Shown here piece after piece: positions 1,386 to 52,028 of a stretch of 52,656 nucleotides of DNA. The stretch is from an uncultured Methanosarcinales archaeon. Lineage in GTDB: Archaea > Nanobdellota > Nanobdellia > Woesearchaeales > CAYMBN01. Both the position numbers and the translations under genes were made by a program. The notes beneath the pieces were generated by a model, which saw only the letters and a list, made by a program, of their open reading frames with translations, had not been told where the DNA came from and made no database searches. Position 1 is the first letter of the stretch, and each line of letters opens with the position of its first letter. Location: NCBI GenBank assembly GCA_964388715.1, contig CAYMBN010000011.1:1-52656 (forward strand), read 5' to 3'.

Positions 1386-1487
1386 AACCTCGTGCTAAAA
1401 AAGGGTTTATTTAGACGGGTAAAAACAAAACATTTAAATATGGGTTTTATTTTATCCTCTATAAATAACTAAAAGGGGGTTATAACT

Positions 1488-4740: not shown

Positions 4741-4755
4741 CAAAACATTTATAAA
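4741..4755 (+). promoter_or_regulatory. archaeal BRE/TATA promoter of aIF1A (likely leaderless mRNA)
   Basis: CAAAACATTTATAAA ends ~22 nt before ATG 4778 with no SD; similar motifs precede many genes in the window. Confidence 0.65.
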
Positions 4756-5122: not shown

Positions 5123-5282
5123 GATTCTTTTAATTTAACTTGAGAAATTTTTCCTATTAATTTCATAACCAACTGGTAATTATTTTGGAAATATTTTTAC
5201 TACTCTAAAATGGAAATATTTAAATATGAGTTTACTTTTATTTAAGAGTATTATTATGAATTATGAAAACGGGGGGATATAA

Positions 5283-11501: not shown

Positions 11502-11554
11502 AATATTTGAGAATTAAGGATATTTTTTAAATTTATTGGGGTTGTAGAATAGGT

Positions 11555-12091
11555 TTAAGCTCTTATCTTTTTGATGATTGCTTTATCACTGATGATTGCA
11601 GAGTTACCTGATTTGTCTTCTATTATTATTTTAAGTTTTTCTTGGCCCCAAGTAACTCTGTTAAGTTTTTTCAAAAGTTTTCTTGCTTTTTTTTGGTCAG
11701 ATTTTTCTTCTGCACTATTTTTTGCAGATTCAATTGCTGTCTTTGCTCTGTTTATGATACCTTCTATGTTTGTTACATAACCTTCTGAAGCAGGACCAGG
11801 TGTGATAGTTATAACATGTGGAATCTTTACTGTTGCTGCACTTGATTTAACAACTCTTATCTTCATATCTTTTTCAGAATTAATTTCAATTGTGTAAGAG
11901 GAAGCTGGTTTTTGTTCTGCGCATTCAATGTCAGCTTTATGATATTTGCAATTTGAACAACTCATTGAGAAAACAAAGACTTTTCCAAAATAAGGTACTT
12001 CTGTTTCTTCTTCCATTAATGTTAATGTCTTTTTAAGGCACATTGGACAAGTTTCTCCTTCAATCTTGTTTTGTGTCTTGTTTTTTGTCAT
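11555..12091 (-). CDS. ZPR1 zinc-finger protein
   Basis: CPMC...VPYFG...CSNC, EGYVTNIEG and DKSGNS motifs. Confidence 0.93.
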   Translation of the reverse strand: MTKNKTQNKIEGETCPMCLKKTLTLMEEETEVPYFGKVFVFSMSCSNCKYHKADIECAEQKPASSYTIEINSEKDMKIRVVKSSAATVKIPHVITITPGPASEGYVTNIEGIINRAKTAIESAKNSAEEKSDQKKARKLLKKLNRVTWGQEKLKIIIEDKSGNSAIISDKAIIKKIRA

Positions 12092-12483: not shown

Positions 12484-14940
12484 TTAGAAGAAACTTCCTA
12501 ACTTACTCTGATCCTTGCTTTCGAGTAAGTCTTCTGATTTGAAACCAAGGACTTCGAAAATACTTTGGACAGCTGGAACTATTTGATGTTTTATGTAATA
12601 TTCTGAATCATAATCATTGTCTTTGATTTCATCAGGGAGTTTGACTCTGTCACGAATCCTTCCTTTGCCTTCTGCAACTATGTATGATATCATTGTGCCT
12701 GGTGGAACTTCTTCACCTTTACTTTGCATACGTTGTGCAGCAGCAACATGAGGACCATATGTTTCATAGTCTGCAATGTCTTTTTGTAATTGTGTGACAA
12801 TTATTAATTTGTTAGGATTAACCTTTTTTGTTCTGAGGTCATGGATAACTTCTTTTACATATTCAAATGCTTTTGTTTGTTTGTCATATTTAAGGATCAT
12901 GTTAAGAACTTTTTGTTGAACTTGTTTTGCAATTGTACTCCAATTTCTTCTGACTGCTTCAAAACCTTTTATTTTTATTACTCCTTTATTTGATACTAAA
13001 GCGTATTTTTTCTTTGCACCATAACTACCTTGTTTTGCAGGAACAAAAATACCTTTTGGATAATGACCTTCAAATTCAAGTTCCATTATACCTGGAAGAT
13101 CTTTATTTATTATTTTAACAAATTCTTTTGCATCTTGCATTGTTTTTTTTCCAAGTGTTAAGAATACTGAATCTGTATCAGAGTAAAGTACATTAAAACC
13201 TTTTTTTTGTGCTTTATTAATAACTTTTTTTATGTAGTACCTTCCATAGGCTGTGATTGATTTTGCACATTCAAGAGAATACCAGCGTGCACCAAAGAAT
13301 CCATAATAACCATATGTTGCATTAGCAAGTAATTTAAGACCTTCTGATCTTGCGTTTAATAGTGGATTTTTCTTTTTCTCTTTTTTTAAGATTTCTTTAA
13401 CACGCATTCTTCGTGTTATAAGATCTTCAACTATTGTTGGAATAAAACCTTTTTTTTGTTTACAAAACCAATATTTTTTGTGTTCAGTAGGTGCTTTTTC
13501 TGCTTTTCCTCTGCAACAACCACATTTTAATGTGTCTGGAGAAATGTTGTGTGAGGTAATTATTGTTGGGTACAGACTTCTGAAATCAAACACGATAATG
13601 TCATCATATAAACCTGGTTTTGGTTCATATACAAAAGCTCCTGTAAAAGTGTGTAATCTTCTTTCTTTTATTTGATTATGATGTGGTTTGTTTGAAGCAA
13701 TTTCATTGAATAAAGGAGCTTGTTTTAGAATGTGCCATTCAACTAATTGTGAGAAACCCATTCTACTTGTGTCAAACAAAGGCAGATTGACAAGTTTAAC
13801 CATTTCTTCAATTAAGGGATATATTTTTTTTAGTAATCCTAATGTTAAATTACAATCTTGTAAATTGTATGTGCAGTATTGTTCAAGTTTTTTTGGATGT
13901 TTGTCCCAGACTTCTGCTAATTTTTCCATTTCAATTTCTTGTTTTTTTTGTCCAAGTATTTCTGTTGCGACATCATCTAATCTGTATGAGTCTGTTTCAA
14001 GTGTTCTGCTCATTACACTTTTTATGAATTTGAAAACGTCAACATGAACAATGCCGTTAAGTTTGATTGATTCTGCTCTTCCTCTTCCAGTCATGGGTTC
14101 TAAATTGTCTAAACCTATGTTTAGTTTTATTTTGTATTTTTTTGCTCGTTCAATAATGTAAGGGAAATCAAATCCATCTGAGAAGTAACCTGTTATTATG
14201 TCTGGTTTAAATTTCTCAATTGTTTCTTTAAAATCTTCAAGCAATTCGATTTCACTTTTTACGAAATTAATGTATTTATGTTTTGTTTTGAAATGTTTCC
14301 ATGTTGTAACTTTTTCAAATTTGTCTGCTTTGTAACCTAACATAATAATTGGATGTTTTTCAGGCATAACTGCTTTACCTAATGGATTATATGTTTCAAT
14401 GTCAATTGCAAGGATTCTTGGTTTGATAGAGTCAGTTGATTCTTGTTTGATGTTAGTTGCCTTGAAAATAGGTACTTTAAGATTTCCTTGGATAAAGTCA
14501 CCTTCTGCTTGCCATAATGTTAATGGTGTGAGAGCTTTGTCAATCAGATATCTTCTTATGAATTTGATGTCATACTCATAAATCTCTTTTACCATGTCCC
14601 ACTCTTTGATGACTTGTCTTATTGCTGGGACAGAAGAAGGTAGATTTACAAAGAGTTTGATTGTTTGAACATCTTTGCCAAGGTGTTTTTTTTGATGTTG
14701 TTCAAGTTTTGTAACAAAAGCATCACCTTTTTTTGTTTCAACTTTAAGTTTTAATGCTTTTCTTTGAAATTCTTTGAAATCGTCATTATCTTCAAGTATG
14801 ACCCAGAAATATGGTTGAAATGAGTCATCTATCACACAGACTTGTTTATTATCAATTGTTCTGCCAAATAGATGGATTAAGGCTTTGTTCCTTGTGATTC
14901 TGTACATTATGTCTAAACAGTGGAAGTGGATTTTTGGCAT
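12484..14940 (-). CDS. polB: family B DNA polymerase
   Basis: DIET exonuclease motif, DFRSLYPTII, KLLANATYGY, YSDTDS; C-terminal PIP box QSKLGSFF; no intein. Confidence 0.97.
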   Translation of the reverse strand: MPKIHFHCLDIMYRITRNKALIHLFGRTIDNKQVCVIDDSFQPYFWVILEDNDDFKEFQRKALKLKVETKKGDAFVTKLEQHQKKHLGKDVQTIKLFVNLPSSVPAIRQVIKEWDMVKEIYEYDIKFIRRYLIDKALTPLTLWQAEGDFIQGNLKVPIFKATNIKQESTDSIKPRILAIDIETYNPLGKAVMPEKHPIIMLGYKADKFEKVTTWKHFKTKHKYINFVKSEIELLEDFKETIEKFKPDIITGYFSDGFDFPYIIERAKKYKIKLNIGLDNLEPMTGRGRAESIKLNGIVHVDVFKFIKSVMSRTLETDSYRLDDVATEILGQKKQEIEMEKLAEVWDKHPKKLEQYCTYNLQDCNLTLGLLKKIYPLIEEMVKLVNLPLFDTSRMGFSQLVEWHILKQAPLFNEIASNKPHHNQIKERRLHTFTGAFVYEPKPGLYDDIIVFDFRSLYPTIITSHNISPDTLKCGCCRGKAEKAPTEHKKYWFCKQKKGFIPTIVEDLITRRMRVKEILKKEKKKNPLLNARSEGLKLLANATYGYYGFFGARWYSLECAKSITAYGRYYIKKVINKAQKKGFNVLYSDTDSVFLTLGKKTMQDAKEFVKIINKDLPGIMELEFEGHYPKGIFVPAKQGSYGAKKKYALVSNKGVIKIKGFEAVRRNWSTIAKQVQQKVLNMILKYDKQTKAFEYVKEVIHDLRTKKVNPNKLIIVTQLQKDIADYETYGPHVAAAQRMQSKGEEVPPGTMISYIVAEGKGRIRDRVKLPDEIKDNDYDSEYYIKHQIVPAVQSIFEVLGFKSEDLLESKDQSKLGSFF

Positions 14941-15051
14941 TTTTAAGTAGAATGTAGAAGTTGGTTTATTTAAAGGTTTAGGAATATATTGTCTAGAGCA
15001 GAAAACTTTATATAGCTTGGAGTATTTGGGTATACACTGGGGGCAAAAAAT

Positions 15052-17612: not shown

Positions 17613-17755
17613 ATTAACTAAAAAGTAGTAACACCATTATATAAATGTTTTGTTTATTTTTTGCCCTTTCTTACTTTACAAACTAAAAAACCAACAGTTT
17701 TCTAAGTAAACAATCAGATGATTATTTACTTCTTAGAAAGATGTTGATTATTAGA

Positions 17756-39682: not shown

Positions 39683-40309
39683 ATGAAATTAATAATTACA
39701 AAAGACAGTTCAATTACGTTTCATAATGATAATTATGATGAAACATATCATTCTGTGAGTGGGGCTAGGCAGGAAAGTGTTAAAAAGTTTGTTGAACCGT
39801 GTAAAAAATTGTTTTGTAAAGATAGATTGGATGTTCTTGATGTGTGTTTTGGAATAGGATATAATACAGCAGCTTTAATGGATAGTTATAGTGGTGAGTT
39901 AAATATTGTGTGTTTAGAAAATGATCCTGTAATTTTGCAAGAAGTTTTGAAAATTGATCCTGATTTTAGGAATTATGATTTGATTAAAGAATTAGTTAGG
40001 AAAAATAAAGTTGAAAAAGGTAATGTAAAGATTAGTTTGGTTATTGAAGATGCAAGGAAGTCTGTGAAGAAGTTGAATGTGGGTTTTGATATTTGTTTTC
40101 TTGATCCTTTTTCTCCAAAAAAATGTCCGGAGTTGTGGACTGTGGAGTTTTTGAGTGATATTTTTAGATTAATGAAGAAGGGTGGGATATTGACAACTTA
40201 TTCTTGTGCAAGAAGTGTTCGTGAGAATTTGGAGAGGGTGGGGTTTGTTGTTAAGGATGGGCCTGTTGTTGGAAGAAGAGGGCCTAGTACTGTTGGAGTT
40301 AAGAATTAG
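39683..40309 (+). CDS. MnmC/MnmD-like SAM-dependent methyltransferase
   Basis: ETYHS, DVCFGIGYN, DPFSPKKCPELW, TYS. Confidence 0.9.
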   Translation: MKLIITKDSSITFHNDNYDETYHSVSGARQESVKKFVEPCKKLFCKDRLDVLDVCFGIGYNTAALMDSYSGELNIVCLENDPVILQEVLKIDPDFRNYDLIKELVRKNKVEKGNVKISLVIEDARKSVKKLNVGFDICFLDPFSPKKCPELWTVEFLSDIFRLMKKGGILTTYSCARSVRENLERVGFVVKDGPVVGRRGPSTVGVKN

Positions 40310-41102
40310 TTAAATATTGGTTTACTTTATGGAACAATTTTCTGTATATTAAACCTTGTTCAACATTTTCACATATACTTTCATCAAACATATGAACTAA
40401 TTCTGGCAGACCTTCTTTTCCATAATGGTGTGAAATTTCTAAGAATTTTTCAAGCAAAAATATTGTTTCTATTATGCCTCCTGGAATTGTTTGATTTTTT
40501 ATTTTTTCTTGTTTTTTGTTTTCTCCATCTAATTGTTGCTCAAACCACCTTACTCCTTCAGCATATCCTTCAATTCCAATTAAACTTTCTACATACAATA
40601 TTTGTGTAAGAGCTGCAGCTCCTTCCTCCATGTTAGGAAATTTTTTAATGTATCCTCCTAAATGTCTTGCAATATGAAAAAGTTCGTGTATAAACATTGA
40701 ATTATAATAAACTTGAAGTTCTGAAGTAAGTTCTGGAAGTTCTTCAAGATTTTGATTGTAATATATAATTTTTCCATTAGGTGGACACATATTTTGTTTT
40801 TTTTCTTCAGGACTCATTCTAGGTAATCCTGGATTAGATTCTTTTAATTCTAATATTGCTTTTTCAATACTAGAATTAACTTTTGCTGTGTCATATTGTT
40901 TTAATGATCTTGTTTCTCTTAGCATTTCTATAACTTTTTCATATATATTTGCATTATAAATTTCCTGTCTGGTATAAGGTAATGGAATTGAAAGACCTCC
41001 TTTAACTAATTCTTGAGGTATTAATTCTAAATGACTAAAGTCTAATTTCTGAGAAAAGGTTTCTCTCATAAATCTTATTGCTTCATCTGGTATTGTTAAC
41101 AT
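40299..41102 (-). CDS. hypothetical protein with zincin-like HExxH
   Basis: FIHELFH...MEEGAA. Confidence 0.7.
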   Translation of the reverse strand: MLTIPDEAIRFMRETFSQKLDFSHLELIPQELVKGGLSIPLPYTRQEIYNANIYEKVIEMLRETRSLKQYDTAKVNSSIEKAILELKESNPGLPRMSPEEKKQNMCPPNGKIIYYNQNLEELPELTSELQVYYNSMFIHELFHIARHLGGYIKKFPNMEEGAAALTQILYVESLIGIEGYAEGVRWFEQQLDGENKKQEKIKNQTIPGGIIETIFLLEKFLEISHHYGKEGLPELVHMFDESICENVEQGLIYRKLFHKVNQYLTNS

Positions 41103-41144
41103 TGTTTTAGGAAAGTTGTTACTATTATTTAAATTCTTACAAAG

Positions 41145-41700
41145 AAATGTGAAGGTGAGCTTCACTATGGGGGGCTCACCTAAATGTGATGATAGTCCCT
41201 GTCAGATCAACTAAAAAGCCCACTCTAGTTAATCAAGGACTGTTATGAGAGTGAAAGAGAAAGGCTCCCGAGGGTTAGAGGGGGTTTGGGAGAAATATTT
41301 GGGAGCCAGAGTTAATATAAAAGTGGAACAAGCCTTTGGGGGGTCATGTTCCACTAGTGCGTACTGAGACTATTTTAGCTTTCGAGCAACGTATGATCAG
41401 GGCATTAATTACGTATGTCACCTCATTTTTTTAGTCCCTGGATCTTTTGATGAGACAGGAATCACCTTAGCATACTACGTTTAGTGTAATCCTATTAGCA
41501 TGTGTCAGTTAATACTATGTCTTCTGACTTTTCTATGCATTGACGTATTGCTTGCATAGCAGCTTTTTTCATTTGCTTAAAGCTCCATTCTATATGATCA
41601 TTACCAGAATTCTTTCGTTCGAAAGAATTCACAGGCTCCCTGACGAGGGTCGAGGGGGTTAGAAAAAATCAAGGAGCCCTGATTTTTTGATTGTGTATCT
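41145..41700 (-). ncRNA. candidate large structured non-coding RNA (~550 nt), family unrecognised
   Basis: No long ORF, raised GC, at least 11 consecutive stem-loops, repeated loop motif, minus-strand TATA at 41725-41732. Confidence 0.6.
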
Positions 41701-41873
41701 TAATATACTGTATAATTAAACTAGTATATAAATGTTACTATTTAGTATACTGGTGTGGATAAGTGTGATATGGATTATGGTGTTATAGGGCTTATGGCTC
41801 AAGAATTTTTAATTTAGTACTCAATAGTTACAAAACGAAAGTTTTATATATTATGCAGAAATTATGGATTTTA

Positions 41874-43139
41874 ATGAGTAATTTACCAGAAAGGATTGAA
41901 GAGAGAACATTGGATGATTTATATGCTGAAGCTGTTGAAGCTTTTGATGTAGGAGATTTTGGAGTAGCAATTGATAATTGTGATGTGATAATTACTAAAC
42001 GTGATTCAGATCATTTTGATTCTTATCTTTTGAGAGGACAAGCATTTTACAAAAATTCTAGGCGTCTTCAAGAGTTGAATAGAATCCCTGGATATCAATT
42101 AAAAGATGATGATGAACTTGAATTAATTTGTAATGAAGTAAATATCTCTACTGATGAATTTACAATTGATAGATTGATTCAAGAATATTTTAAACAGGCT
42201 GCAAATGATTTTGAAAGAAGTGTTGAATTAAATCCTAACTCTTATGTTGCACATTGTTTTGCAGCACAGGCTTATTTCTTTGTTGAAGAGCCAGAAAAAG
42301 TTTTGGAACATCTTGATATGGCAATAAGGATGAAATCTGAAATAGGTGAACAACCTAAAATAAAATACTTGCAAGCAGAGTCTTTAAGAAAAACATGTAA
42401 ATTTGATTTAGCACTTAAAAAATTTGATGAAGTAATTGCTGAGTTAGAACCAATTGTTTGTGCTGATGAAGGTGATTCAGCTGTGTCACATGAAAAACTT
42501 GTGCAAGAAATAAATAGTTCTGAGAAAGAATTTGGTCAATTAATAAGGACTTATTTGGGTGCTATTGATACTTGTGATGATATGCGTAAATTGAGAAAAG
42601 CAACCCCTTATTTAGAAGGATTACTAAAAATAAGTCCTGATATAGATAGTTATATAATTGCTCTTGAAGTGTATTCTAATCTAAGAGATTGGAAAAAAGT
42701 TGTTTCATATGTTGATCAAGGTATGGGTGAGACAGTAAGTAACCCAGAACATTTTATTCCTATTTTTAATGCTTACAAAGCAGTTGCTTTGTCTTTGTTA
42801 AAAAGGTACGATGAAGCATTAAAGTTGATAGATAAAACAATTGAGATAGGTATTAGTCATGAAGATGAGAGTCTGCTTAAATTTTACAAAGCAATATGTT
42901 TATTTGGATTAGAAAGATATATGGAAGCTGAAGATCTTTTTCGTGATGTAGCTGTTTCTAATCCTGGAATAGGAAAGTATAAAGTATCTTATGAGAGAGC
43001 AGCAGAATATATAAGAATAAAAGATGATCCTGACGCTTTGAGAGAGGTTAATCTTGATAGAGAATTACAAGAACGTAGAAATCAGTTTGATGATTTTCTA
43101 GTCACTAGTCTTTCACCAAAAAAGGATATGAAAAATTAA
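41874..43139 (+). CDS. TPR-repeat protein
   Basis: Several TPR-like units, e.g. DFERSVELNPNSYVAH and YDEALKLIDKTIE. Confidence 0.82.
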   Translation: MSNLPERIEERTLDDLYAEAVEAFDVGDFGVAIDNCDVIITKRDSDHFDSYLLRGQAFYKNSRRLQELNRIPGYQLKDDDELELICNEVNISTDEFTIDRLIQEYFKQAANDFERSVELNPNSYVAHCFAAQAYFFVEEPEKVLEHLDMAIRMKSEIGEQPKIKYLQAESLRKTCKFDLALKKFDEVIAELEPIVCADEGDSAVSHEKLVQEINSSEKEFGQLIRTYLGAIDTCDDMRKLRKATPYLEGLLKISPDIDSYIIALEVYSNLRDWKKVVSYVDQGMGETVSNPEHFIPIFNAYKAVALSLLKRYDEALKLIDKTIEIGISHEDESLLKFYKAICLFGLERYMEAEDLFRDVAVSNPGIGKYKVSYERAAEYIRIKDDPDALREVNLDRELQERRNQFDDFLVTSLSPKKDMKN

Positions 43140-44432: not shown

Positions 44433-44555
44433 TTTTTCATTCACCTCATGAATGTTATAACTATTAAGTAGTGATTGTTATATATAAAATATCTTATTCT
44501 TTTTTTTAACAAATGGTAACATTTATATATAATAACAACCATTAAGTAAAATATA

Positions 44556-45527
44556 ATGCTAGATTTGAAAGATAAGAGAATATTGAAAGAACTGTTTGTT
44601 GATGGTAGAATGCCTCTTTCAGTGATTGCTAAGAAAGTTCAGCTCAGCAAAGAGGTTGTTCACTATAGAGTAAACAGGATGATTAAAGAAGGTTTATTGT
44701 TAAGAATTAATTCTGTCTATGATATACAAAGATTAGGTTGGAAGATATTTCTTGTATATGTTAGGTTAAAAAGTGTTGATAATGAAAAGGAAAAACAGAT
44801 TATTGATACACTGAAAAATCACCCAAATATTGCTTGGGTAACCAAATGTATTGGAAGTTTTGATCTTGTTGTTAAATTCTTTGTAAAAGATAATATTGGG
44901 CTTAACTTAATCATGAAAAGACTTGAAGAAAAGTTTGAAATTGATGATTACAAAATTGATTTCATGGAAAAGGAGCACTTAGTACCACTTCCATTTTTAT
45001 ATGCTCCTGTAAAACCAGATCAAATGATAGAAAAAAGAGGAAAAGGAATTTTTAAACCAGAAAAAATTGACTTGAAAATCCTAGAACAATTAGCACACAA
45101 TTCAAGAATGCAAATAACAGACATTGCAAAAAACATTAACGAATCAAGGGAAAAAGTAAAATATCATCTAAAAAAGTTAGAAAAAGAAAAAATAATTCTA
45201 AAATACCGCCCAAGTGCATGGTCAGGAAGTAAGTCAATTGGTTATAGTTGGTATTTAGTTCTTTTAAAATTGAAAAAATTAGACAAACAAAAGAGAAATA
45301 CATTGATTAGTTTTATTGCAAATCATCCTAACATGACTTATTATTATGAAATGATTGGAGAGAATGATTTTGGTTTTGAGATAAGACTTAAGACAGGTGA
45401 TGAATTGAATGAAATCCTGATGAAAATCAGATCAATCTTAGGAGAAGACCTTAAAAGACATGATTTGTCTTTGATTCTTAAGGAGTATAAATACACTTAC
45501 TTCCCAGAATGTTTGAAGAATACGTAA
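44556..45527 (+). CDS. tandem (double) Lrp/AsnC transcriptional regulator
   Basis: Two HTH+RAM units: LDLKDKRILKEL... and IDLKILEQLAHNSR... Confidence 0.9.
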   Translation: MLDLKDKRILKELFVDGRMPLSVIAKKVQLSKEVVHYRVNRMIKEGLLLRINSVYDIQRLGWKIFLVYVRLKSVDNEKEKQIIDTLKNHPNIAWVTKCIGSFDLVVKFFVKDNIGLNLIMKRLEEKFEIDDYKIDFMEKEHLVPLPFLYAPVKPDQMIEKRGKGIFKPEKIDLKILEQLAHNSRMQITDIAKNINESREKVKYHLKKLEKEKIILKYRPSAWSGSKSIGYSWYLVLLKLKKLDKQKRNTLISFIANHPNMTYYYEMIGENDFGFEIRLKTGDELNEILMKIRSILGEDLKRHDLSLILKEYKYTYFPECLKNT

Positions 45528-51965: not shown

Positions 51966-52028
51966 TCCGAAAAGTTTACGGAATTTATTTTCAAAACATT
52001 TATATAGTTTTTAGGTATTACTTTTTCT

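Follow-up and report, generated by a model that had tools for sequence, protein, structure and literature searches.

RoxS/RsaE-type small RNAs (sRNAs) of Firmicutes are encoded by stand-alone genes with their own promoters and carry unpaired C-rich regions in hairpin loops, which act on Shine-Dalgarno (SD) sequences. Staphylococcus aureus RNAIII is about 500 nucleotides (nt) long and has many hairpins, several C-rich loops that are said to bind SD regions, and a small internal open reading frame (ORF). The CsrB/RsmZ sponges repeat one short motif in successive hairpin loops. In archaea, the trans-acting sRNA162 and sRNA41 of Methanosarcina mazei have been proposed to pair with SD or start regions. 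In this study, we analyzed positions 41140-41702 on the minus strand of contig CAYMBN010000011.1, an archaeal DNA of 52.6 kb with 31% GC (the window). Our results indicate that this locus is probably a real and independent gene for a structured non-coding RNA (ncRNA) of a Woesearchaeota-type (DPANN) archaeon.

The window RNA resembles RoxS/RsaE in its C-rich hairpin loops and its own promoter, and RoxS-type sRNAs work in the manner that we propose here, with C-rich loops directed to the SD. It differs from them in being archaeal, in lacking homology and any Rfam match, in its predicted length (about 560 nt, and 190-320 nt in relatives), and in a loop of about 16 nt instead of a CCCC tetramer; its pairing is a predicted one. 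It is about as long as RNAIII and, like it, has many hairpins (12 stems), C-rich loops (four), and a small ORF (25/45 aa). It departs from RNAIII in that its ORF lacks relatives, neither sequence nor model gives a match, no quorum-sensing context is present, and only the first hairpin is conserved in relatives. The repeated loop motif is reminiscent of CsrB/RsmZ, but it is C-rich rather than GGA, no partner protein is known, and the relatives have one loop copy. The M. mazei sRNAs differ in lineage, sequence, and size and show no homology, and the window loop complements a whole SD class rather than one operon. Large structured RNAs in Rfam (RNase P, signal recognition particle (SRP), OLE, GOLLD, ROOL, HEARO, and others) are likewise GC-rich, multi-hairpin, and intergenic in an AT-rich genome. 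None of them matches, and the window RNA shows no sign of a conserved complex tertiary core. In our rating, the RNA family is new, whereas its kind of function is a known one. Full-text literature searches found no paper on structured or regulatory RNAs of DPANN or Woesearchaeota.

The locus lies in a gene-free gap at 41103-41873, which by crude gene calls is the largest in the window (771 nt; the next are 554 and 413 nt). The GC content of the gap is 0.36 compared to 0.278 in all other gaps, with a maximum of 0.437 at 41150-41449 compared to 0.31 window-wide. A first-pass annotation made from the sequence alone had described this stretch as the largest gene-free and GC-enriched one, tiled with 12 stems, and had proposed a stand-alone structured RNA of about 550 nt and of unrecognised type. 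All 12 stems were recovered at their positions. Six are strong (41153-81, 41192-243, 41263-307, 41322-55, 41607-30, and 41634-78; -9 to -19 kcal/mol on the better strand), and the remaining six are weak (-1 to -7 kcal/mol). The folding excess over dinucleotide shuffles, which that annotation had named as a check, was present: the minus strand of 41140-41735 (596 nt) folded with a z-score of -4.85, and none of 100 shuffles was as good, compared to -2.25 and 2 of 100 on the plus strand. By parts of the minus strand, with 150 shuffles each, z was -4.14 at 41600-41705 (0/150), -2.77 at 41140-41440 (1/150), and -3.37 in the 3' 181 nt of the RNA (0/150). The middle 194 nt (41440-41633) were near background (z -1.93, 3/150). 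Most of the folding excess comes from the first 106 nt of the RNA and from its last 181-301 nt.

Four ORFs, all of 40-45 aa, lie inside the gap. The 45-aa ORF (41495-41632, minus) had no Pfam match and no relative among 1.84 billion representatives; the other three were left unsearched. Rfam 15 covariance models were scanned against the window, where only two tRNAs elsewhere reached the gathering score. A permissive scan of 41000-41900 (E≤10) gave five chance-level matches to snoRNA/sRNA families and none to RNase P, SRP, or ribosomal RNA (rRNA), in agreement with the first-pass reading; the best, snoR138, reached 20.9 bits compared to its gathering score of 44 (E 0.18). In eight loci of relatives only tRNAs reached the gathering score, and the best match in L005 6500-7050 had an E-value of 1.6. 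The type therefore remains unmatched by any Rfam family in the region of the window or in these loci. Phage and plasmid collections held no match to the locus.

The motif RTAACATTTATATA occurs at 18 sites in the window at up to two mismatches, compared to 4.03 expected, and none of 100 shuffles reached 18. Its consensus is (A/G)(A/T)AACATTTATATA, and its sites include 44516-44529 (+), 1427-1440 (+), 4742-4755 (+), 17638-17651 (-), and 51993-52006 (+). The motif ends 23-27 nt ahead of many leaderless start codons in the window. We therefore take it as the TFB recognition element (BRE) and TATA box of this organism, a large share of whose genes would thus be leaderless. Only two copies are exact. 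One, at 44516-44529, ends 27 nt before the leaderless ATG at 44556. The other is the minus-strand promoter GTAACATTTATATA, which points into the gap as had been noted in the first pass and whose direction is fixed by the side of the BRE. No second motif at up to two mismatches was found inside the RNA region. The 267-aa gene downstream has its own ATTTAAATA box at 41127-41135, 25 nt before its ATG at 41102, so the earlier statement that the region is not simply the leader of this gene held.

Homologues were collected by using an alignment of the MnmC-like protein as anchor, which gave 80 Woesearchaeota loci, 76 of them with at least 600 nt downstream. The proteins flanking the RNA were dropped as synteny anchors, as they had no usable relatives. 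Searches by blastn and nhmmer found a homologous non-coding block right behind the MnmC-like gene in L004, L005, L012, L030, and more weakly L063 (nhmmer E-values for the window of 3.3e-7 with L005 and 2.2e-6 with L004). The plus-strand promoter block TATATAAATGTT is invariant in five aligned sequences (window, L004, L005, L012, and L030), with a near copy in L063; the box GTATACTGG is invariant in the same five and present in L063. A hairpin follows the promoter on the minus strand of the relatives, about 25-75 nt downstream. The plus-strand C:A mismatches that become G:U pairs on the minus strand, reported in the first pass, are real in the window and in relatives, and the same stems also carry double changes. 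Folding z-scores on the minus and plus strands were -7.38 and -2.92 in L004, -5.37 and -4.03 in L005, and -6.69 and -1.72 in L030. None of these three has a run of five or more T on the minus strand. On the plus strand, runs of T5-7 occur in L004 and L005 and none occurs in L030.

A covariance model seeded from L004 alone (R1) found only L005 (E 1.5e-9) and L030 (E 1e-3). Model R2 was then built from L004, L005, and L030, without the window, and run unfiltered over the window, L005, L012, and L063 (91,620 nt). The top new matches were L063 (E 3.4e-7), window 41623-41688 on the minus strand (24.6 bits, E 2.2e-5), and L012 (E 9.9e-5). The best match within the window is hairpin B, the first hairpin of the RNA. 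In the other 75 loci (1.06 Mb), R2 had no match at E≤1. The core stem reads GGCUCC/GGAGCC in the window and L063, GACUGC/GCAGUC in L004, GGCUGC/GCAGCC in L005, and GACUCC/GGAGUC in L012 and L030. In this 6-bp core, the second pair is G-C or A-U and the fifth is G-C or C-G, and all four combinations occur. Across the hairpin B alignment, 95% of 120 cells were paired, double changes were found in 6 of 16 pairs, and the covariation score was 0.245 compared to 0.127, with 0 of 500 shuffles as high; when partners were slid, at most 59% of cells paired. The bodies of L004 and L005 show double changes in 12 of 29 predicted pairs. The conserved loop of about 16 nt reads YUUCU..AAACCACCCCUCACAC in relatives and ..UAACCCCCUC.. 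in the window. These results indicate that homologues with compensatory changes exist for hairpin B and for the L004-L005 body.

Other searches were less productive. When the hairpin motif (22 specified bases) was searched as an exact pattern in GTDB representative genomes, no genome matched, the source genome included. A MAFFT alignment of the hairpins with RNAalifold misaligned the 3' arms and predicted no pairs; it was superseded by the single-locus-seeded model. A descriptor search for further C-loop hairpins returned only the known ones and dubious matches; one of the latter, L002 6894-6956, lacks the promoter block. In a quick tree of the MnmC-like proteins, the window, L004, and L005 form a clade (SH-aLRT support 95), so that the three loci are plausibly orthologous. 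The remaining carriers, L012, L030, and L063, are dispersed over the tree (four label changes; 2 of 500 shuffles were as low).

The length of the RNA differs among the loci, with a body of about 320 nt in L004 and L005 and of about 190 nt in L030; the predicted RNA of the window has about 560 nt. In L004 and L005, the closest relatives, the terminal hairpin and U-rich tail of the body abut the stop codon of a convergent MnmC gene, so that a leader is excluded in these two loci. The 3' ends of L004 and L005 consist, as in the window, of a GC hairpin and a U-rich tail, with a sequence homology to the window end that is not demonstrated; the likeness (CUAUCAUCAC plus hairpin) was seen by eye only. 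The earlier proposal was for the most part right about the kind of RNA, an independent structured ncRNA on the minus strand, and went too far on its size, as one conserved RNA of 550 nt is unproven. By comparison of the sequences, the demonstrably conserved unit is the promoter and the 5' hairpin (41623-41688), and the long body appears to be lineage-specific. A promoter of its own pointing inward, no conserved ORF, a minus-strand folding excess, and compensatory changes in hairpin B were all found.

We investigated the relationship between the loops of the RNA and SD sequences. Four of the nine runs of at least five G in the whole window lie at the locus, all on the plus strand and all in hairpin loops, which correspond to C5-6 loops on the minus-strand RNA. 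Outside the locus, three of the five runs (1475-1479, 5271-5276, and 15039-15043) lie at SD position, 7-10 nt before an ATG; other genes of the window have the SDs GGAGG or GAGGUGA. In the window and the 80 loci, words complementary to the loops were found at SD position in 9 of 32 cases (8-mers, relatives' loop) and 41 of 163 cases (6- to 8-mers, window loops), compared to 16 of 59 for canonical SD 8-mers (GGAGGUGA words) and 2 of 38, 4 of 39, and 2 of 32 for reversed or same-strand control words. GGGGG(G) and GAGGGGUG stood at SD position in 25-28% of their occurrences, on par with the canonical words, and the controls in 5-10%. These results establish GGGGG-type SDs as a genuine class of Woesearchaeota. 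The anti-SD core of 16S rRNA is CCUCC, and G-rich SDs would pair with the 16S tail only via G.U wobbles. None of the gathered loci contained a 16S rRNA from which to read the anti-SD of the lineage, and SD-led genes per locus were too few to compare the loop with the SD type lineage by lineage. For the C-runs, the predicted probability of being unpaired is 0.96-1.00 in relatives and 0.53-1.00 in the window (0.53 in hairpin B, with CCCCCUC at 41652-41658), and the loops are perfect complements of a G-rich SD class. The best predicted duplex partners were the genes at 1488, 5283, and 36840, ftsZ, and sepF. The start regions of ftsZ (50778) and sepF (8198) have the G-rich SDs GGGGAGG and GGAGGG. 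One top duplex match was an artefact, being in fact a tRNA 3' end.

From these observations, a mechanism can be outlined. Transcription would start at about 41700 from the consensus promoter, pass hairpin B and then, in this genome, three further hairpins with C5-6 loops, and would end near 41140 at the terminal hairpin and U-rich tail. The unpaired C-rich loops may act as anti-SD mimics that base-pair with the G-rich SD variants of the lineage, GGGGG(G) and GAGGGGUG; such pairing would hide the ribosome-binding sites of some mRNAs or change how stable these mRNAs are. With four loops, the copy in this genome would be multivalent. Loop-to-SD pairing is the likeliest mechanism, with somewhat less than an even chance of being the one by which the RNA works. 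A more far-reaching version is unlikely: a conserved single-hairpin sRNA would have expanded into a multivalent anti-SD RNA of about 560 nt that outcompetes the 16S tail for mRNAs with G-rich SDs, as a global translational governor and an independent counterpart of RNAIII/RoxS. If that version is true, a multivalent RNA would govern translation globally in a lineage with mostly leaderless genes, with predicted partners including ftsZ and sepF. DPANN archaea are uncultivated and host-dependent and have tiny genomes, and the locus offers a testable handle on their post-transcriptional control. It represents a covarying, promoter-driven RNA family whose conserved loop of about 16 nt is complementary to a ribosome-binding-site variant typical of the lineage. 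C-rich-loop riboregulators in Archaea and Firmicutes may have evolved convergently. Model R2 is ready for metagenome mining.

Several observations weigh against an RNA of this extent and function. The block is present in only 5 of the 76 testable loci, and beyond hairpin B the window RNA has no demonstrable homology to anything. A model of the L004/L005 3' module (R3) had no match in window 41140-41260 among its 34 matches at E≤10; its best match in the window, 11539-11624 on the plus strand (19.3 bits, E 0.012), lies at or partly within the antisense of a ZPR1-like gene and was taken as chance. Because the roughly 450 nt behind hairpin B were missed by this model, the length of 550 nt is unproven; the observed compensatory changes are those of hairpin B and of the L004-L005 body. 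We inferred the start, the end, and the length of the window RNA from the sequence. L012 and L063 showed no folding excess (z -0.68 and -1.22), and minus-strand runs of U5-6, placed by eye, lie just behind their hairpin; the family may therefore be a short sRNA of about 80 nt. In the window RNA, U6 (41661-41666) and U5 (41222-41226) could terminate the archaeal polymerase, and the minimum free energy (MFE) fold contains an A6:U6 hairpin that competes with hairpin B. The alignment behind the covariation score had been fitted to the model; seven of its nine rows, a small number, are independent, and two are reverse-strand duplicates of the same hairpins. When 58 start regions in the window were screened for duplexes with the four loops, the enrichment was modest: 6, 4, 0, and 2 of the 58 fell below the 2% background quantile. 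In hand pairing, the relatives' loop CCACCCCUC formed only about 4 bp with the common GAGGUGA-type SD.

These points bear on the alternatives to a long, independent ncRNA. It is rather unlikely that the functional conserved unit is a short sRNA of about 70-90 nt (leader and hairpin B) and that the remaining 450 nt or so are lineage-specific spacer, decayed hairpin duplicates (A, 41322-55, and 41153-81), or separate transcripts. Detectable conservation limited to the promoter and hairpin B, the failure of R3 on the window body, and the barely structured middle are consistent with this explanation, as are the U-rich tracts behind the hairpin in L012 (two U5), L063 (U5), and L004 and the U6 within hairpin B of the window. 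However, L004, L005, and L030 have RNA bodies with strong structure on this strand (z -5.4 to -7.4) and without T5+ runs, the L004-L005 pairs carry double changes, the 3' 181 nt of the window RNA fold beyond all 150 shuffles, and the region has no second promoter motif at up to two mismatches. The repeated loops might instead bind a protein with affinity for single-stranded C-rich RNA, in the manner of the CsrB/RsmZ sponges or as a scaffold, which we consider improbable. In favour of such a sponge, the same motif type stands in the unpaired loops of four hairpins, the conserved loop exceeds the length needed for an SD complement, and the target test in the window was weak. Yet no candidate protein is tied to the locus, the flanking genes are orphans not conserved with the RNA, the relatives have one such loop only, and the complementarity to real SD variants is specific compared to the reversed controls.

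The structure could also act in DNA or on the plus strand, as a bidirectional terminator or 3' untranslated region of an upstream plus-strand gene, as promoter or operator DNA, or as a replication origin with G-string repeats like those of origin recognition boxes (ORBs). A conserved terminator-like plus-strand CACCTC followed by T6-7, a region placed directly behind the MnmC stop codon in L004 and L005, and a next gene in L012 and L030 that resembles a family-B polymerase by hand translation would fit, and GTGGAAC...GGGGGG at 41322-41343 may resemble ORB elements with a G-string. We regard this explanation as very unlikely, because the folding excess and the wobble pairs favour the minus strand, the BRE fixes the promoter orientation, no plus-strand gene precedes the region in the window, and the stems covary rather than hold a fixed binding sequence. 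As for an origin, the G-runs all lie on one strand and on one side of an AT-rich block with no inverted set, no Orc1/Cdc6 family was found among 57 proteins scanned against Pfam, and the polymerase gene is 26 kb off. An mRNA for one or more small proteins is a very slim prospect, even though GGAG precedes the 25/45-aa ORF and an A-run with GAGGU is followed after 4 nt by an ATG and an ORF in L012 (58 aa) and L063 (47 aa). The three peptides are unrelated by eye, the 45-aa ORF is without relatives or Pfam match, no start codon follows the SD-like motif in L004, L005, L030, or the window, and GC enrichment and folding excess are not mRNA-like. Least credible, and extremely unlikely, is that the locus encodes a housekeeping RNA (RNase P RNA, SRP RNA, or guide sRNA) too divergent for the Rfam models. 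The size of about 320 nt in L004 and L005 would fit, and the purine-rich GAGGUGAAUUC after the first hairpin may bear a faint likeness to conserved region I (CR-I). Against it, no RNase P, SRP, C/D, or H/ACA model matched the window or L005 at E≤10, apart from chance-level snoRNA matches (E 0.18-8.5), nothing reached the gathering score in the eight relatives' loci, length and body are unconserved, the RNA stands at this position in 5 of 76 loci, and no P4-type long-range pairing was found by hand. In its favour, DPANN archaea are reported to have the ribonucleoprotein form of RNase P, without HARP, so that an RNase P RNA must exist somewhere in them (PMC6380272).

The features along the independent ncRNA gene and its surroundings are collected in Table 1. 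The folds were computed for four RNAs in the case of the A-run with GAGGU(G), which is predicted to be paired (P(unpaired) 0.00-0.25); an ORF follows it only in L012 and L063.

Table 1. Features of the ncRNA locus and its flanks, in window coordinates
Feature	Position	Strand	Remark
Tetratricopeptide repeat (TPR) protein gene	41874-43139	plus	other flank of the RNA
Conserved box GTATACTGG (plus-strand letters)	41745-41753	minus	just upstream of the promoter; possible regulator site
BRE/TATA promoter GTAACATTTATATA	41725-41738	minus	exact match to the promoter motif of the genome
Predicted transcription start	41698-41702	minus	from the 23-27 nt spacing; 5' leader like that of L005 by eye
Hairpin B, conserved 5' module	41623-41688	minus	R2 match; core stem 41634-41639 with 41673-41678
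Perfect 11-bp hairpin after GUGAAUUC	41607-41630	minus	from the fold
Weakly structured middle	41440-41606	minus	absent from relatives; overlaps the 45-aa ORF 41495-41632 (minus)
A7 then UGAGGUG, SD-like motif	41419-41432	minus	A-run with GAGGU(G) in all six loci
Hairpin with CCCCCC loop	41322-41355	minus	9-bp closing stem; P(unpaired) of the C-run 0.72
Hairpin A, paralogue of hairpin B	41263-41307	minus	same stem sequence and loop motif; CCCCCUC at 41278-41284
Long hairpin	41192-41243	minus	MFE -19.3 on the minus and -9.2 on the plus strand
Terminal hairpin 41153-41181 (CCCCCC loop) and U-rich tail	41138-41181	minus	terminator-like; likely 3' end
267-aa gene	40299-41102	minus	flanks the RNA; between the MnmC-like gene and the RNA

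Hairpin A was matched only weakly by R2 (14.5 bits, E 0.08-0.11), and its C-run is predicted to be unpaired with a probability of 1.00. The GUGAAUUC element also follows the A-rich stretch in L004 and L005, a likeness seen by eye only. The leader AAAAAAUCAGG is able to pair with CUUGAUUUUUU in hairpin B (41663-41688, minus), in an alternative fold that excludes the conserved stem. The AAGAA:UUCUU pairing reached 88.5%, has its one double change in the window, and is similar in L005 and L063; in the controls, 106 of 500 shuffles scored as high and slid versions were equally good. The two folds of the modelled leader and loop may form a conformational switch. K-turns, C/D or H/ACA boxes, a G-quadruplex in hairpin A, and an RNase P-like P4 pairing were examined by hand and were not conserved. 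Counts of the A-run with GAGGT as a generic ribosome-binding or terminator motif were uninformative, as they were inflated by overlapping matches, and this candidate was set aside.

In L012 (10690-10870) and L063 (4145-4285, minus), the A-run and GAGGU are followed after 4 nt by an ATG and by unrelated ORFs of 58 aa (L012, hand translation) and 47 aa (L063). The C-loop hairpin of L063 comes directly after the ORF's stop codon, in the manner of a terminator. On the plus strand of the window, an ATG-TGA start-stop pair (41184-41189) stands 9 nt behind the G6 run at 41169-41174; the pair is probably meaningless if the plus strand is untranscribed.

The genes of the window include those for an ATP-dependent DNA ligase, a family-B polymerase, FtsZ, SepF, aIF-1A, an NFACT-type protein, and a pilin-like protein. 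The best relatives of the MnmC-like methyltransferase (39683-40309) are at most 57% identical and come from records that carry the names Woesearchaeota or Nanoarchaeota, which places the organism among the DPANN archaea, with no close sequenced kin. In relatives, the MnmC-like gene adjoins the RNA block directly, and in the window the 267-aa gene is interposed. Both flanking proteins are orphans, since a search of 5.8 billion protein clusters returned, apart from the window's own sequences, one weak relative of the TPR protein (E 4e-5). Many records titled 'uncultured Methanosarcinales archaeon' (L002, L008, L010, L019, and others) carry the MnmC-like gene and nest among Woesearchaeota/Nanoarchaeota in the tree, and so does the gene of L078, titled 'Cloacimonadota bacterium'. 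These contigs are likely mislabelled or misbinned. Past the conserved promoter block, the other-strand gene of L012 (from about 11230) and L030 (from about 9403) resembles a family-B DNA polymerase by hand translation. The family-B polymerase gene of the window lies at 12487-14940, 26 kb from the RNA locus.

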